Source: a virus. Taken from it: DNA of 25,586 bases. How positions within the stretch are numbered: position 1 is the first letter of the stretch; every line of letters starts with the position of its first letter. The notes under the pieces were generated by a model. That model did not search any database. It worked only from the letters and a program-made list of their open reading frames with translations, and was not told the DNA's origin. This document shows, piece after piece, positions 240 through 25,586 of the stretch. The DNA is taken from UHGV virus genome UHGV-0108017. The stretch is one strand, 5' to 3'. Position numbers and translations under genes: made by a program.

Positions 240-281
240 AGGTTAAAAAACCAGCCGCGGGCTATTGGAATTAGCCCGCCT
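240..281 (-). terminator. putative rho-independent terminator of the repressor transcript
   Basis: 8-bp stem GCGGGCTA (257-264) / TAGCCCGC (272-279) with 7-nt loop; on the minus-strand RNA the hairpin is followed by a UUUUUU run (plus-strand A-run 245-250). Stem overlaps the stop codon at 271-273. Confidence 0.45.
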
Positions 282-855
282 TCGATTCTAAACTACTTGA
301 GAGTTTATCGCTTTCAATTTCTGCCAAAATCTCTCTAACTCTTTCATCCGATAAATGATCTAAAAGTAGAGCTGCTGCACGTTTTCGTCCTTCAAGTTGG
401 ATTAGTTCTTGATTCTCTGGTTCAAGTAACCGTGACAAGTACTTAGCTCCATTTAGCGCGAGGATTTTTGATAATCGCTCTGCCTCTGATGCTTCTAAAG
501 CACTTAGTATAGCAAGAAGGCGCTGTAGCGTTATATCTAGGGGCAATTGGACGTTTTCATCTATTTTAGGTGATATTGGTTCTATATCCTCCTTGCCAAA
601 AACAAGCCAATCAATGCTCACCCCTTCTGCAAAAGCAATCTGACCAGCTACTTGTAGAGATGGTGTCGCATCTTTCTCAAAGTAGTTGTTAAGTGTTGAG
701 AACGGTAGCCCCCACGCCTTCGCCACGGCAGTCTTGGAGCGCCCGCGCATTAACATGGCTAGGCGCTCTTTAATGCTTTCTTTTTGAAACACAGGAAAAG
801 AAAAATCACTTTCTTTTTCAGTGCTTCTTTCTTTTCTGTTAACTATATGATTCAT
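271..855 (-). CDS. prophage repressor (Mu c-like by position), HTH DNA-binding protein
   Basis: Only leftward gene, divergent from ner at the left end. Start taken at ATG 853-855 (MNHIVNRKER...); the ORF-track start at 906 is a GTG. HTH-like segment SKTAVAKAWGLPFSTLNNYF. GC much lower than the rest of the window. Confidence 0.6.
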   Translation of the reverse strand: MNHIVNRKERSTEKESDFSFPVFQKESIKERLAMLMRGRSKTAVAKAWGLPFSTLNNYFEKDATPSLQVAGQIAFAEGVSIDWLVFGKEDIEPISPKIDENVQLPLDITLQRLLAILSALEASEAERLSKILALNGAKYLSRLLEPENQELIQLEGRKRAAALLLDHLSDERVREILAEIESDKLSSSLESKAG

Positions 856-995
856 AAAGAAATATCCTTTTGTAGATAAAAACCACCAAAGAAAGAGATA
901 AAACACCTTTACTTTTCTTTTGTAGTGATCAAATATTTATATGTAGAGATTATCCGGCGGTGTTATCCGCGCAGATAACTTTTAAGGATAAACGA
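856..995. promoter_or_regulatory. divergent early promoter / operator region between repressor and ner
   Basis: Repeated TGTAG(A/T)GAT motifs (871-879, 921-929, 942-950), 18-bp near-palindrome GTTATCCGCGCAGATAAC (962-979), IHF-like GATCAAATATTTA (927-939). Confidence 0.55.
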
Positions 996-1234: not shown

Positions 1235-3322
1235 ATGTTTGTATCAGTTAATGAGCTTGTAGGGCTACCAGGTATGCCGGGAACTGCGCAAGGGGTGCGG
1301 TATTCCATAAGGAAACTGGCCTCATCTGAGCATTTCAGGCGCAAACGTGCGGGTTCAAAAACCATTGAATACAGCATCGACTGCCTCCCTCCGATTACAC
1401 AACGGGCGTTACGTGAGCGACATGTAGCTCAACTGATGGCAAGCGCCCCGCAGGAGATAACTACCCAGCCTCCTGTAAAGCGTGAACGCAAACAAAATGT
1501 TGTACAGCCTGTTGAGGCATATCGCGGTTCGCCACAATTGGTAGAAGAGCGTCTGAATGCGCTTACGGAAAATCAACGTAAAGTTGCAGAAGCGCGCATT
1601 GCTCTTGTCTGTGAAGTTCTACGAATTAGCCAGGAGCCGGGATTCAGTTGTGCCAGCGCTATACGTTTTATTGTGTCGCGGTTAGCACAGGGTAACCTGG
1701 AAGAACGCCTGGAATCTTTGGTCATTACTGCTAATGCCCGTAAAGGAAAAGAGCGAACTCTGAGCGCAATTACGCTCAAACGTTGGATAGCTGCGTTTAA
1801 CAAAGCACAGAATGCCGCAGAACGACTGCTGTTACTGGCACCAGGAAAGCGCGACGAAATAAAACCGGAAGAAATTAGCTGGCTGCCTGAATTTCTGGCG
1901 CAGTATCGTCAGGCTAACGGCAGGCCTATGTCTGAAGCCTATGAGGATTTTGTCGCTGATTGGCAGCGTCGCCATGCGGACGAACCATACATGCTGGAGG
2001 TGATGCCTTCCTATGATGTTGTCCGGTATGCCATGAAAAAACTGCCGGAAGTGGTGAAACAAAAAGGGCGCGTTACCGGCAGTGAATACCGTCAGCTTGA
2101 AGGATTCACCCGCCGCGACTGGACAGCTATGCCGGTGAATTATGTCTGGATTGGTGACGGTCACGGTATGAAGCTGAAATGTGCGCATCCGGTTCACGGG
2201 CGTCCATTTTCACCGGAAGTTACGTTTGTGATCGACGGTGGAACCCGGTTTGTGGTTGGCTGGAGTCTTGATCTTGCGGAGAACGTGTTCGCTGTTGCCG
2301 GGGCGATACAACACGGCATTCGCAATCATGGAAAACCATTCCTGTATTACTCGGATAATGGTTCCGGTGAAACGGCAGATATGCTGGATAAAGAGATCGT
2401 CGGGATTCTGCCCCGTCTGGGGATTAACCACCCCACCGGTATTGCGGGAAATCCGCAGGGACGCGGCATTATTGAACGCCTGAACCGAACATTACCGATG
2501 CGTATAGCCAGGAGGTATCGCACCTATTTCGGCAAGGGTGCTGACCGGGAATCGTTGCGAGTACTTAATCGTGATCTGCGTTCAGCGTTTAATGCCCTGC
2601 AACAGGACAAGCCACTGAGCGCCCGTCAGAAAGCCGCAATGCGCGAGCTGCCGTCCTGGTCAGAACTGATTGAGGCTATCCGTGAGGGGGTGGAGTGGTA
2701 CAACAACCGCCCACATTCTGAATTGCCGATGAAACCAAACGGAAAGCATTACAGCCCGGCAGAGTTCAGAAAAAAACGCTTAGCGGAAGAAGACACTGAA
2801 ATTGAGTGGCTGAGTGATCTTGAGCTGCGCGACATGTTCCGCCCGATGGTGGAGCGTCCGGTAAGACGCTGCGAAATCCAGTGGCTGAACAATATTTACT
2901 ACGCGCCAGAGCTGCGTGATGAACATGGTCGCAAAGTACTTATCAGCTATGACATTCACGATGCCGAGCGAATTACGGTACGCCGTAAGGACGGTAGCTT
3001 TATCTGTGAGGCGATATGGAACGGCAATAAACGCGCAGCCTTTCCTGTCACGGCTGAATATCACAAACAACAGCAGCGTATTAAAGGCATGCGCAAGCGT
3101 GCTGAGGAAAAAATTCGTGATGCAGAGGATGAAGGTATTCAGATTCTGGAACACAAACAGGCTGAACCCTGGCTGGATAATGTTTATCGCCCGGTTGGTA
3201 ATACGGTAACCATCCGGCAACAGGATTATGAGGAAGATTACGACGAAGATTATGAACGCGATTTCAGGCTGGGTTTGCAAAAACTTGCAGCCATACAGGA
3301 ACAGGATGATCCGCTGGCCTGA
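1235..3322 (+). CDS. A: DDE transposase (MuA-like)
   Basis: 695 aa immediately after ner. N-terminal winged-helix-like region resembling MuA; candidate catalytic residues D308 (WIGDGH), D375 (YYSDNGSGE), E414 (IIERLNR) by inspection. Confidence 0.85.
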   Translation: MFVSVNELVGLPGMPGTAQGVRYSIRKLASSEHFRRKRAGSKTIEYSIDCLPPITQRALRERHVAQLMASAPQEITTQPPVKRERKQNVVQPVEAYRGSPQLVEERLNALTENQRKVAEARIALVCEVLRISQEPGFSCASAIRFIVSRLAQGNLEERLESLVITANARKGKERTLSAITLKRWIAAFNKAQNAAERLLLLAPGKRDEIKPEEISWLPEFLAQYRQANGRPMSEAYEDFVADWQRRHADEPYMLEVMPSYDVVRYAMKKLPEVVKQKGRVTGSEYRQLEGFTRRDWTAMPVNYVWIGDGHGMKLKCAHPVHGRPFSPEVTFVIDGGTRFVVGWSLDLAENVFAVAGAIQHGIRNHGKPFLYYSDNGSGETADMLDKEIVGILPRLGINHPTGIAGNPQGRGIIERLNRTLPMRIARRYRTYFGKGADRESLRVLNRDLRSAFNALQQDKPLSARQKAAMRELPSWSELIEAIREGVEWYNNRPHSELPMKPNGKHYSPAEFRKKRLAEEDTEIEWLSDLELRDMFRPMVERPVRRCEIQWLNNIYYAPELRDEHGRKVLISYDIHDAERITVRRKDGSFICEAIWNGNKRAAFPVTAEYHKQQQRIKGMRKRAEEKIRDAEDEGIQILEHKQAEPWLDNVYRPVGNTVTIRQQDYEEDYDEDYERDFRLGLQKLAAIQEQDDPLA

Positions 3323-3323
3323 A

Positions 3324-3360
3324 TAAAAAACAGTCCGCGGGAACGGACTGTTAAGTAAAG
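3324..3360 (-). terminator. hairpin between A and B; intrinsic-terminator geometry on the minus strand only
   Basis: Perfect 8-bp stem ACAGTCCG (3330-3337) / CGGACTGT (3344-3351), 6-nt loop; preceded on + by AAAAAA, so the minus-strand RNA has hairpin then U-run. No U-tract on the + strand. Confidence 0.4.
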
Positions 3361-3394
3361 GAAACAAAGCTGATTTGAATAAACGGAGAATAAT

Positions 3395-4327
3395 ATGACC
3401 GATATTAATGATGTTTTCAACACAATTAATGCGCTGATTACTGACGGTGTAAAAACACAAAGCGCTATCGCCAAAGAAGCTGGCGTGTCGGAGGCCACTC
3501 TTTCTGAACTTCGCAAAGGCCGTTACAAAGGCGATACCGAAGGGATGCACAACAAATTACTGATGTGGCATCAGGGCTGGCAGAAAAGTCTGGAGTTGCC
3601 CGGCACCCCACAACTTGTGGAAACACAGACCCTGCGTGATTTGCGTGAACTTTTTCAGACAGTGCGTGTTATGGGGTGTATCAGCGTTCTGGTGGGTGTG
3701 CCGGGGGTAGGAAAAACCGTTGCGGCCCGTGAATACAGTAACCGCGTATCTAATACCTGGATGGTAACCCTTTCCCCTGCACACTCAACGGTGACGGAAT
3801 GTCTGCTGGAACTGGCAGACGCGCTGGGAATTGATAACCCGCAAAGGAATAAAGGCGCGCTGACCCGTGCCATTCGCAAAAAACTGAACGGTACACGCGG
3901 TCTGGTGATTGTGGATGAAGCTGACCACCTGAGCATTGACGGGCTGGAACAATTACGTGCCATTCAGGATGCCACCGGAGTCGGGATGGTATTGATTGGT
4001 AACCCCAGTCAGTTAGCCAAAGCCACACATCGGGGAACGGATGACCTTGCACGTTTGTTCAGTCGTTTCGCCAGGACAAAGCAACTACGTAAAGCCAAAA
4101 AGGCTGACGTGGTGGCAATTGCGAAAGCCTGGGGCATTGAGGGCGAAGATGAATTATCACTCATGCAGAGCATCGCGGAAAAGCCAGGCGCATTGCGTGT
4201 ATTAACTCACACGCTGAATCAGGCGTGGCTGGCAGCCAGCGGGAAAGGCGTTCCTCTGTCCAAAGGCTACATAAAAGCGGCTTTTAAAGAGGTTTACAGC
4301 AACCCGAAATTACTGAACTGGTGGTAA
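3395..4327 (+). CDS. B: transposition ATPase / target DNA activator (MuB-like, AAA+)
   Basis: 310 aa; Walker A GVPGVGKT (K107) and Walker B LVIVDEADHL seen in translation; N-terminal HTH-like region; sits directly after A as in Mu. Confidence 0.85.
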   Translation: MTDINDVFNTINALITDGVKTQSAIAKEAGVSEATLSELRKGRYKGDTEGMHNKLLMWHQGWQKSLELPGTPQLVETQTLRDLRELFQTVRVMGCISVLVGVPGVGKTVAAREYSNRVSNTWMVTLSPAHSTVTECLLELADALGIDNPQRNKGALTRAIRKKLNGTRGLVIVDEADHLSIDGLEQLRAIQDATGVGMVLIGNPSQLAKATHRGTDDLARLFSRFARTKQLRKAKKADVVAIAKAWGIEGEDELSLMQSIAEKPGALRVLTHTLNQAWLAASGKGVPLSKGYIKAAFKEVYSNPKLLNWW

Positions 4328-4341
4328 GGGGATAATAAATA

Positions 4342-4569
4342 ATGATGTCACGAAATATAAAAATGGCAACGGATGCGCAGAACTGGTTACAGGCGCGCGG
4401 GAGTCATGTAAATGAATCATATCTCGGCGTGGCGCGTCCGATTCTTGAAATCACTTACCCACCGGTGGAACTGGTAAAAAACGCGGTCAGAATTATGGAG
4501 CATAAGTCCGGGGTGGCCCGTTCTGTATGGACGGCCCGTTTTAATGGTTGCCAGATAATCTGGAGATAG
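4342..4569 (+). CDS. hypothetical early protein (at the position of kil in Mu)
   Basis: 75-aa ORF with AAGGGG RBS, immediately after B; AT-rich relative to flanking genes. No recognisable motif. Confidence 0.5.
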
Positions 4570-24237: not shown

Positions 24238-25586
24238 ATGACCGGGAAACGCTTAAAGGCGTCTGTCATTATTGACCTTAATGGCAATCTTTCCCGGCGT
24301 TCCCGCCAGTATTCGAACCAGATAAACGCCCTGTCCCGTAGCGGGCAAAGTTCCCTGCGTGCCCTGCGTATGGAGGTTGTGCGCGTTTCTGGTGCCATTG
24401 ACAGAATGGGTTCACTGTCAACCCGTACATTCCGAATGCTGTCAGCCGGGGCGCTGGGTATCGCTGGTGTGGGTTACACCGCCAATAAACTGTTTATTGG
24501 TGCAGCCGCCCAGCGTGAGCAGCAAATTATCGCCATGAACTCGCTGTATCACGGCGATAAGGTCAGAGCGCAGGCCATGATGGCCTGGGCGAAGCAGAAC
24601 GCGAAGGACACCACGTGGGGGCTGAGTGGTGTTCTGGATGAGATCCGTTCGTCGAAAGGCTTCGGCATGACGGATGAACAGACGAAACAGTTCATCACCA
24701 TGTTGCAGGATCAGGGGGCCATGCACGGCTGGGATTTACCCACTGCACAGGGTGCCTCACTGCAACTGAAACAGATGTTTGCCCGCCAGCAAATCACGGC
24801 GGCGGATGCCAACCTGCTGACCGGTTACGGTATCAACGTTTATCAGGCGCTGGCGGATGCAACGGGAACGGACGTTAAAAAAATCCGTGATCTGGGTACA
24901 AAGGGCAAGCTGGGCATGAAATCCATTCTGACGGTATTCAGAACGCTGTCAGAACAGTCAAAAGGTGCACAGGCCAGTGCGATGAACTCCTGGGACGGGA
25001 TGTTCGCCCAGATGGAAGCTAACCTGCTTGAATTTCGCATAAAGGTGGCAAACAGCGGCCCCTTTGAAGAAATCAAGAACGAGATGCGCCGGGTGCTTAA
25101 CTGGCACGACATGGCGGATAAATCCGGGGAACTTGACGCACTGGCAGAAAACATTGGTCAGAAATTTCTGACCACGTTCAGAACGGTAAAAATCGCGGCG
25201 CAGGAATTATGGCGCTGGCTGAAACCGGGTAAAGATGCGCTGGCATGGGTTGACCAGAATATTGTCAGCCTGAAAAAACTGGCTGCTGTTCTGGTGTCTG
25301 TCTGGCTTGCCAATAAAGCCCTGAGAGCAGGCTGGGCTGTGGCAAAACCCTCATGGCAGGTTGCCAGTTATCCGTTTAAAACCGGACGTCGTATGTGGCG
25401 CTGGATGCGGAACCGCAAACGTGGGCAGGCAGGTCTGCCGGTCCCGGATGCCATGACGTCTGAGACGCTGTTGCAGGGTATCGGCATTCAGCGTGTGTTT
25501 GTCATCAACTGGCCCCGTGGATTTGGTGGCTACGGGAGTGGCGGCGGTCGTCGCGGACGGAGCGGCAGAAGAATGGCCCCGCTGTT
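24238..25586 (+). CDS. N: tail tape-measure protein, 5' partial (continues past window end)
   Basis: ATG 24238; open frame with no stop to the window end (about 449 codons); helical Ala/Gln/Leu-rich composition, internal hydrophobic segment, Gly/Arg-rich stretch at the end. Not in the ORF track because it has no stop. Confidence 0.75.
   Translation, partial: MTGKRLKASVIIDLNGNLSRRSRQYSNQINALSRSGQSSLRALRMEVVRVSGAIDRMGSLSTRTFRMLSAGALGIAGVGYTANKLFIGAAAQREQQIIAMNSLYHGDKVRAQAMMAWAKQNAKDTTWGLSGVLDEIRSSKGFGMTDEQTKQFITMLQDQGAMHGWDLPTAQGASLQLKQMFARQQITAADANLLTGYGINVYQALADATGTDVKKIRDLGTKGKLGMKSILTVFRTLSEQSKGAQASAMNSWDGMFAQMEANLLEFRIKVANSGPFEEIKNEMRRVLNWHDMADKSGELDALAENIGQKFLTTFRTVKIAAQELWRWLKPGKDALAWVDQNIVSLKKLAAVLVSVWLANKALRAGWAVAKPSWQVASYPFKTGRRMWRWMRNRKRGQAGLPVPDAMTSETLLQGIGIQRVFVINWPRGFGGYGSGGGRRGRSGRRMAPL

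Follow-up and report, generated by a model that had tools for sequence, protein, structure and literature searches.

Genetic context of the A-B junction

The window, as the whole stretch of 25,586 nucleotides analyzed here is termed (UHGV virus genome UHGV-0108017), belongs to a Mu-like transposable phage, with c, a ner-like gene, A and B following one another at its left end (Table 1). Mu and D108 share this gene order (c, ner, A, B, kil), and from position 4330 on, a portion that comprises the late region, the window exhibits ~98% identity to both. Up to ~3211, the match is to the Yersinia phages vB_YpM_5 and vB_YpM_6. Between these two portions lies a block (3212-4329) of an origin unlike either neighbour, which consists of the last ~37 codons of A, the A-B spacer and all of B. 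The early region is thus a mosaic with junctions near 3211 and 4330. The hairpin that forms the subject of this study is located inside the central block and is therefore part of its "B module." The C-terminal tail of MuA contacts B as well as ClpX, and because the exchanged block holds the C-terminal end of A together with B, the A tail travels with its own B partner. The A protein of the window module ends in ...DDPLA and that of Mu in ...RRKKAI (window 3310-3322). ClpX recognises the C-terminal tag of MuA, and given these two endings, the ClpX-recognised tag therefore differs in the window module.

Close E. coli relatives of A are annotated as "Mu transposase C-terminal domain-containing protein" and have the same stop position, and the RefSeq relatives of B in close E. 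coli prophages are annotated as "AAA family ATPase" with an identical start. The AAA and MuB C-terminal Pfam domains (PF13401 and PF09077) are both present in B homologues. A long minus-strand ORF (2780..3550) was considered as a gene that the hairpin might close and was rejected, as the hairpin is internal to this ORF and not behind it.

Table 1. Position and strand of the genes and sequence features discussed in the text.
Feature	Position	Strand	Basis
Repressor gene c	271-906	-	ORF list
Gene A, Mu-type transposase, 695 aa, stop TGA 3320-3322	1235..3322	+	ORF list; E. coli relatives
A-run on the plus strand, corresponding to the U-run UUUUUAU of the predicted leftward terminator; abuts the A stop codon	3323..3329	-	sequence
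Predicted terminator hairpin (arms 3329-3337 / 3344-3352, loop 3338-3343)	3329..3352	-	folding; scans
A/U-rich spacer, poorly conserved; would be the unpaired 5' portion of the predicted antisense RNA	3353..3384	-	alignment; fold
Shine-Dalgarno sequence GGAG of B, at the predicted leftward start point (as placed from the putative -10)	3385..3388	+	sequence
Predicted -10 CATATT, in which CAT is the complement of the B ATG	3392..3397	-	tool scan; PWM scan
Gene B, MuB-type AAA+ ATPase, 310 aa	3395..4327	+	ORF list; homologues
Predicted -35 TTGAAA, within B codons 7-9	3415..3420	-	tool scan; PWM scan

A hairpin with terminator features on the antisense strand

Directly after the A stop codon, the plus strand reads ATAAAAA (3323-3329), ACAGTCCG (3330-3337), CGGGAA (3338-3343) and CGGACTGT (3344-3351). 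When this strand is folded with RNAfold, an additional A3329-U3352 pair yields a 9-bp stem that begins 7 nt past the stop and encloses a 6-nt loop (dG -13.8 kcal/mol; z = -5.4; equally good folds in 0/200 shuffles). The minus strand folds into 10 bp, including one G.U pair, around the 4-nt loop UCCC (dG -14.6 kcal/mol; z = -4.8). Only on the minus strand is the stem followed by UUUUUAUU: the tail there is UUUUUAUUC, with 7 U among the next 9 nt, and the tail after the plus-strand stem is UAAGUAAAGG, which contains no U-run. Thus, a G+C-rich stem of at least 5-8 bp, a loop of 3-8 nt, a clearly negative dG and a 3' U-run, structural features expected of an intrinsic terminator, are all found on the minus strand, and with the tail UAAGUAAAGG the sense U-run of a plus-strand or bidirectional terminator is absent. 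The sequence-only reading had described a hairpin just after the A stop with the shape of a terminator on the antisense strand only, a description upheld by the sequence itself, by RNAfold and by a consensus scan. It had given the antisense tail as "UUUUUUAUU," in which the U-run is correct and the count is off by a single U shared with the last stem pair, a trivial discrepancy.

With its G+C-rich stem of 9-10 bp, loop of 4-6 nt, dG of ~-14 kcal/mol and 7 U in 9 nt on the minus strand, the hairpin is comparable to canonical enterobacterial intrinsic terminators. It differs from them in its location, as it sits inside a rightward operon in the opposite orientation and no annotated gene is found upstream on its own strand. 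It is also distinct from the bidirectional terminators that are common between convergent genes, since it is strictly unidirectional.

Within the first 12 kb, the consensus scan ranked the hairpin as the second-best terminator-like site, behind one located after repressor gene c. A more stringent scan, applied to both strands of the whole window, returned the hairpin and only one other site, at 25174..25155; it required a perfect stem of 7 bp or more containing four or more G/C, a loop of 3-8 nt and a minimum of 6 T within the 9 nt that follow. The same scan is expected to yield 0.165 matches per simulated window, and at least one match occurred in 13% of the simulations. The single-window case for the hairpin is consequently only moderately above chance, and the strong evidence is comparative. 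That a hairpin plus T-run of this quality arises in ~13% of random windows is also a point in favor of assigning it no function at all, either as a chance palindrome or, considering the two mosaic junctions, as a recombination relic of the early region.

The other site from the strict scan, on the minus strand, has the arms and loop TGGTCAGA / AATT / TCTGACCA and the tail ATGTTTTCT. The site after repressor gene c (279..257, minus strand) is a terminator-like hairpin, GCGGGCTA...TAGCCCGC with the tail GGCTGGTTTT, that overlaps the stop of this gene; presumably, it is the c terminator and shields the left end.

Conservation of the hairpin among Mu-like phages

For the comparison, every A-B junction was extracted from 160 loci with B homologues, drawn from genomes and viral contigs. 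Among these junctions, a hairpin starting 0-17 nt past the A stop recurs with unrelated stem sequences. The window represents type I, with the stem AACAGTCCG; type II has the stem AAATAACCCGAG, with variants in Citrobacter, Edwardsiella, L144 and L148; the stem of the Sodalis/Symbiopectobacterium type is AAGCCATTCGG and that of L151 is ATACCTCCGG; and G+C-rich stems are found in Thiotrichaceae, Geobacter and several alphaproteobacterial elements. Of 5426 complete E. coli genomes, 233 contain type II, with many O157:H7 genomes among them, and Sp18 of O157:H7 Sakai carries it. Type I occurs in 10 of the 5426, each time at the end of a Mu transposase gene, and is no dispersed repeat of the kind that defines the REP family.

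The polarity of the element is as consistent as its location. In all hairpin-bearing lineages, 4-7 of the 8 nt that precede the stem are A and 0-3 of the 8 nt that follow it are T, in agreement with the earlier remark that the sense strand has no U-tract. Every enterobacterial lineage, along with several distant lineages, has an A-run of 6-8 immediately 5' of the stem, and in E. coli prophages whose A/B module is 80-93% identical, the A-run and the two arms are both unchanged. When nine type I sequences are aligned, the arms are invariant and variation in the hairpin is confined to the loop (CGGGAA, CGGTAA, CTGTAA or C--GAA), in contrast to the many differences found in the terminal part of A and elsewhere in the spacer. 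In a neighbour-joining tree of B proteins, the entire enterobacterial clade, including the window, has a hairpin with a T-rich antisense tail, and a hairpin occurs in most members of a second, environmental clade as well, in many cases followed by a tail of this kind. The clade of Mu, D108 and the Klebsiella, Xenorhabdus, Vibrio and Pasteurellaceae elements yielded no hairpin, save for one match in L033 produced by an A/T-rich TTTAAAC repeat. A weak consensus structure from MAFFT and RNAalifold for 14 antisense hairpins (8 pairs, 7 with compensatory changes) was set aside, as the alignment was out of structural register between types.

Based upon these features, it is very probable that the hairpin is under selection. 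The absence of any function is correspondingly a highly improbable scenario: the hairpin lies away from the mosaic junctions, it occupies the same place with different stems in two large clades, and the type I arms remain constant between divergent flanks. Another scenario places the selection on the DNA, where the perfect inverted repeat, with arms of 8-9 bp set 6 bp apart, would suit a dimeric protein, such as a transposition cofactor or a regulator encoded by phage or host. However, lineages with homologous A and B have unrelated arms in which the pairing alone is kept, and the A-run and the G.U asymmetry described below are features of RNA, which leaves such a protein-binding site as the least credible of the explanations considered here.

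Mu, D108 and vB_YpM_6 differ from the window in that their A-B spacer, which is A/T-rich and 38 nt in length, has no hairpin; the hairpin belongs to a different A-C-terminus/B module. The hairpin-bearing enterobacterial spacers measure 62-83 nt versus the 38 nt of Mu. The hairpin-less spacers of the Mu clade (L008, corresponding to Mu 3320-3357, as well as L033, L036, L040, L014, L019, L023, L043 and L057) contain 1-5 TTTAAAC-like words, which in all of these loci other than L008 lie upstream of position 1501. Mu has ttaacgTTTAAACaaaaTTTAAttacgagg, and the Pasteurellaceae elements have 3-5 copies of ATTTAAAC. These words may constitute a different regulatory device at the same junction.

The strand under selection

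A G.U pair in one RNA corresponds to a C.A mismatch in the complementary RNA, and imperfect stems therefore reveal which of the two strands is functional. In type II, a C.A mismatch on the sense strand is a U.G pair on the antisense strand, where 13 pairs are continuous, and the predicted stabilities are -9.8 to -11.1 kcal/mol (sense) versus -15.7 to -16.4 kcal/mol (antisense). The L125/L126 variant has a second such position, with values of -7.4 versus -13 to -14 and an intact antisense stem. Over 60 unique junctions, 54 are more stable on the antisense strand, the mean difference being -3.3 kcal/mol, and G.U pairs number 127 on the antisense and 32 on the sense strand. The antisense strand is also favored by 67% of composition-matched shuffles, as compared with 46% of coding windows from the same loci, and counted by hand per independent lineage, ~23/28 favor antisense versus the expected 67%, which is a modest excess. 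Hence, part of the strand asymmetry is due to composition, and the excess beyond it is clear per sequence and modest per independent lineage.

Selection has apparently acted upon the leftward RNA, because the sense mismatches are antisense G.U pairs and because the A-run is conserved. Structure, polarity, conservation and strand asymmetry, as read from the sequence and its comparison between loci, make a good but not conclusive case that the element has been selected as a leftward terminator, and we regard leftward termination as its probable selected function. The hairpin is accordingly best read as a predicted intrinsic terminator that would act unidirectionally, in the leftward direction. 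An effect upon leftward antisense transcription had been among the suggestions made earlier for this locus, and it is the one favored by the conserved A-run together with the stability and the G.U bias of the antisense stems.

The same reading had raised roles on the sense strand, namely a processed 3' end of A and the coupling of A to B. Several observations are compatible with such an mRNA element, which might shield the A cistron from 3'-to-5' exonucleases following cleavage in the spacer or uncouple B translation from that of A and in this way set the A:B ratio. The hairpin is certain to form in the sense RNA, given its dG of -13.8; its location 7 nt after the stop is where terminating ribosomes would melt it; the A/U-rich stretch behind it is typical of RNase E targets; and sense U-runs are absent everywhere, as read-through into B requires. 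Furthermore, intercistronic hairpins such as the REP element of malE-malF stabilise upstream cistrons, and the A-B hairpin resembles that element in being a stable structure right behind the upstream stop with no sense U-run. It differs from the REP element in that it is not dispersed, and neither a conserved A-run nor antisense-biased pairing would be expected of stabilising hairpins of this kind. A sense-strand function likewise leaves unexplained why the A-run is conserved and why sense mismatches coincide with antisense wobble pairs; the type II sense hairpin is weak, and that of L125/L126 is weaker still with its antisense counterpart kept. Hence, of the earlier proposals for the sense strand, hairpin formation itself stands and the functions attached to it are disfavored; we consider them rather improbable. 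A switch in which the hairpin arms would act as anti-SD and anti-anti-SD elements toward the B Shine-Dalgarno sequence was also rejected, as the complementarity amounts to 4-5 nt and is inconsistent between types.

A promoter-like site at the start of B

A tool scan identified a minus-strand sigma-70-like site, TTGAAA-17-CATATT (3420..3392), ~40 nt to the right of the hairpin. Scored with a simple position-weight matrix made for this analysis, it attains the top sigma-70-like score for both strands of the window (9.7 bits, or 10.5 bits with the alternative -10 TATTAT) and ranks first among 32 gene starts, followed by the kil start (4332; 9.7 bits). In the enterobacterial clade, 14 of 15 unique 29-mers (69 loci), including those of the distant L012, L025 and L151, score 7.8-9.7 bits at the same position. 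At a comparable location, the Geobacter elements carry TTGCAA-17-TATTCT or TTGCAA-17-TACCCT, and GC-rich environmental and alphaproteobacterial elements exhibit weak promoter-like matches of 3-5.5 bits. In the Mu clade, the junctions score lower and the positions of the matches are scattered, with no fixed-position site at the B start. The promoter-like element and the hairpin occur together in 14/15 unique enterobacterial variants, which provide few independent contrasts.

Among 35 unique B 5' ends, C24-A25-A26, which correspond to the TTG of the -35, are invariant, with residue 8 varying between F, I and S and residue 9 between N and K, and among the first 40 B codons, codon 8 is one of just two in which the third position never varies. 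Nevertheless, conservation of the -35 is confounded with protein constraint, because it sits in conserved codons. The -10 CATATT lacks the first T and is partly forced by the ATG and by the A-rich translation start region, and as the 9.7 bits of the kil start indicate, A/T-rich gene starts can score high unaided. Taking these sequence features together, the site at the B start, which the sequence-only reading had overlooked, would be a likely source of a leftward transcript.

At the B/kil junction, two minus-strand promoter-like sites also face leftward (4361..4332 and 4369..4342). The TTTATA-18-TATTAT found there is, at 9.7 bits, the second-best site of the window, and the promoter-like sequence at this junction is common to hairpin-less Mu. 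A transcript initiated there would cover the whole of B in antisense before ending at the hairpin.

A predicted antisense RNA in the A-B spacer

Several inferences can be made from this arrangement. The putative sigma-70-type promoter over the B start codon is predicted to drive weak, constitutive leftward transcription. The resulting RNA would start at ~3384-3386, at the B Shine-Dalgarno sequence, traverse the A-B spacer and terminate at the U-run abutting the A stop (~3322), yielding an antisense RNA of ~60 nt (~3384 to ~3322) confined to the spacer. The hairpin and its A-run would stop only leftward RNA polymerase, which travels against the early operon. Being fully complementary to the early-mRNA spacer up to the edge of the B Shine-Dalgarno sequence, the RNA could pair with the mRNA, and such pairing might either impede access of the 30S subunit to B or form a duplex that RNase III would cut, separating A from B. 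The anticipated outcome is that expression of B, and perhaps of A, would be damped under conditions of weak early transcription, such as lysogeny or leakage from Pe; after induction, strong rightward transcription should override the weak convergent promoter.

Some properties of the spacer are in keeping with this prediction. In a minus-strand fold of 3385..3323, the 5' body is unstructured and the hairpin is located at the end, and the predicted RNA fits the spacer exactly, bounded by the A stop and the B start. It reaches the base next to the Shine-Dalgarno sequence (3385-3388), such that coverage of the latter depends upon the exact start point and its direct occlusion is not assured. The fast divergence of the spacer body is as expected of a cis-acting antisense RNA, as opposed to a trans-acting RNA with a conserved seed. 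Overall, the best explanation for the element would be a selected leftward terminator that ends a ~60-nt antisense RNA arising from the promoter at the B start, to which we assign a probability of roughly 0.45. For the specific step in which the hairpin ends a dedicated ~60-nt RNA, the promoter, the RNA and its effect are all predicted features, and we put its chances at somewhat under even.

The leftward terminator could also act as an insulator that has no small RNA of its own. In this scenario, it would stop stray antisense transcription entering from B or from further right (e.g. from sites at 3761 or 4332), which if unstopped would cross A, ner, the operator/enhancer and the left end or collide with early transcription. 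The structure, polarity, conservation and strand asymmetry of the hairpin accord with an insulator just as they do with a terminator for a dedicated RNA; further minus-strand promoter-like sites do exist to the right, and a single, non-significant read in Sakai, an RNase E CLASH chimera, includes an antisense-B fragment. However, insulation does not account for the placement of the terminator exactly at the A stop in so many lineages, nor for the presence of the window's best promoter-like site 40 nt upstream in a conserved position. Moreover, the kil-start site is present also in Mu, which has no hairpin, and untranslated antisense RNA is normally dealt with by Rho. Insulation alone is therefore an unlikely explanation in our estimation.

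Relation to known systems

Should the hairpin indeed end a dedicated antisense RNA, its closest parallels would be found among short cis-antisense RNAs of other mobile elements. The sar RNA of phage P22 is ~69 nt in length and is transcribed within an intercistronic spacer from a promoter that faces the operon; it is complementary to the region ahead of the downstream gene, its intrinsic terminator adjoins the upstream gene, and it should come into play while the strong operon promoter is inactive. This antisense RNA of the arc-ant intercistronic region is named in a review (PMC5415839). The predicted A-B RNA would share with sar its size class, its spacer location, a facing promoter and a terminator beside the upstream gene. 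The two exhibit no sequence similarity, and the A-B RNA, predicted from sequence alone, would have its 5' end only at the edge of the B Shine-Dalgarno sequence; its putative target is a transposition ATPase, whereas that of sar is an antirepressor.

The OOP RNA of phage lambda is 77 nt in length and promotes RNase III cleavage of the cII mRNA (PMC5415839). As is predicted for the A-B RNA, it is short and leftward, has a promoter and an intrinsic terminator of its own, and lies inside a rightward early operon, and the long perfect duplex that the A-B RNA would form with the mRNA would similarly serve as a substrate for RNase III. Whereas the predicted A-B RNA would lie within a non-coding spacer, OOP extends over the 3' end of a coding region.

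Uncontrolled transposition is harmful, and in IS10/Tn10 the ~70-nt cis-antisense RNA-OUT limits the transposition protein; it starts inside the transposase gene and pairs with the 5' end of the transposase mRNA. The predicted A-B RNA would likewise be a short cis-antisense brake on a transposition protein in a mobile element, but it is located between A and B and would act upon B and/or the A-B junction. It is conceivable, although we offer this tentatively, that a large branch of Mu-like phages carries a previously undescribed antisense RNA gene in the A-B spacer that serves as an RNA-OUT-like, post-transcriptional brake on the transposition proteins and is absent in Mu. Such a branch would include the Sp18-type prophages in hundreds of genomes of E. 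coli O157 and other STEC as well as elements in Salmonella, Citrobacter, Edwardsiella, insect symbionts, Geobacter and alphaproteobacteria.

Work on how Mu transposition is controlled has concentrated almost wholly on Mu and D108, in which the repressor, Ner and protein stability are thought to govern A and B. The A-C-terminus/B module of the window and of most enterobacterial Mu-like prophages differs from that of Mu by a conserved, orientation-specific RNA element. If the hairpin ends an antisense RNA, the use of cis-antisense RNA, known from IS10, P22 and lambda, would extend to transposable phages, and a synonymous mutation of the promoter would offer a handle on prophage-driven mutagenesis in pathogenic E. 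coli. If it is solely an insulator, it would represent a clean natural case of a unidirectional terminator that is kept within an operon against antisense transcription.

RNA families, literature and Sakai data sets

A search of Rfam 15, with the E-value relaxed to 10, returned no family at its gathering threshold. A MicF-like match (minus strand, 3419..3323; 29.5 bits versus a threshold of 79) was rejected as a chance result driven by the terminator and the A/U-rich body. A literature search for an antisense RNA, a terminator or RNA data at the A-B junction of Mu-like phages found nothing relevant: the A/B junction is not discussed in an RNA-seq paper on Pseudomonas phage Fc02, and the HnrS paper concerns lambdoid prophages and was dismissed as not relevant.

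Sakai encodes a type II junction, and its Hfq-CRAC list includes no candidate in the spacer, although the filter of that screen may exclude a spacer of this size. The Sakai RNase E CLASH supplements contain sense fragments of A and B along with the aforementioned antisense-B chimera, and nothing in the spacer. These data are weak negative evidence against an abundant Hfq-bound RNA in uninduced Sakai. The Hfq-CRAC list does contain one candidate from Sp18, EcOnc37 (NC_002695.2 5,077,340-5,077,410, minus strand; locus L171). It was rejected as an A/B element, as its position is close to the right-hand end of the Mu-like prophage, where it runs antisense to the 3'-terminal part of ECs_4993. Its presence in the list shows that Mu-like prophages do express antisense RNAs.
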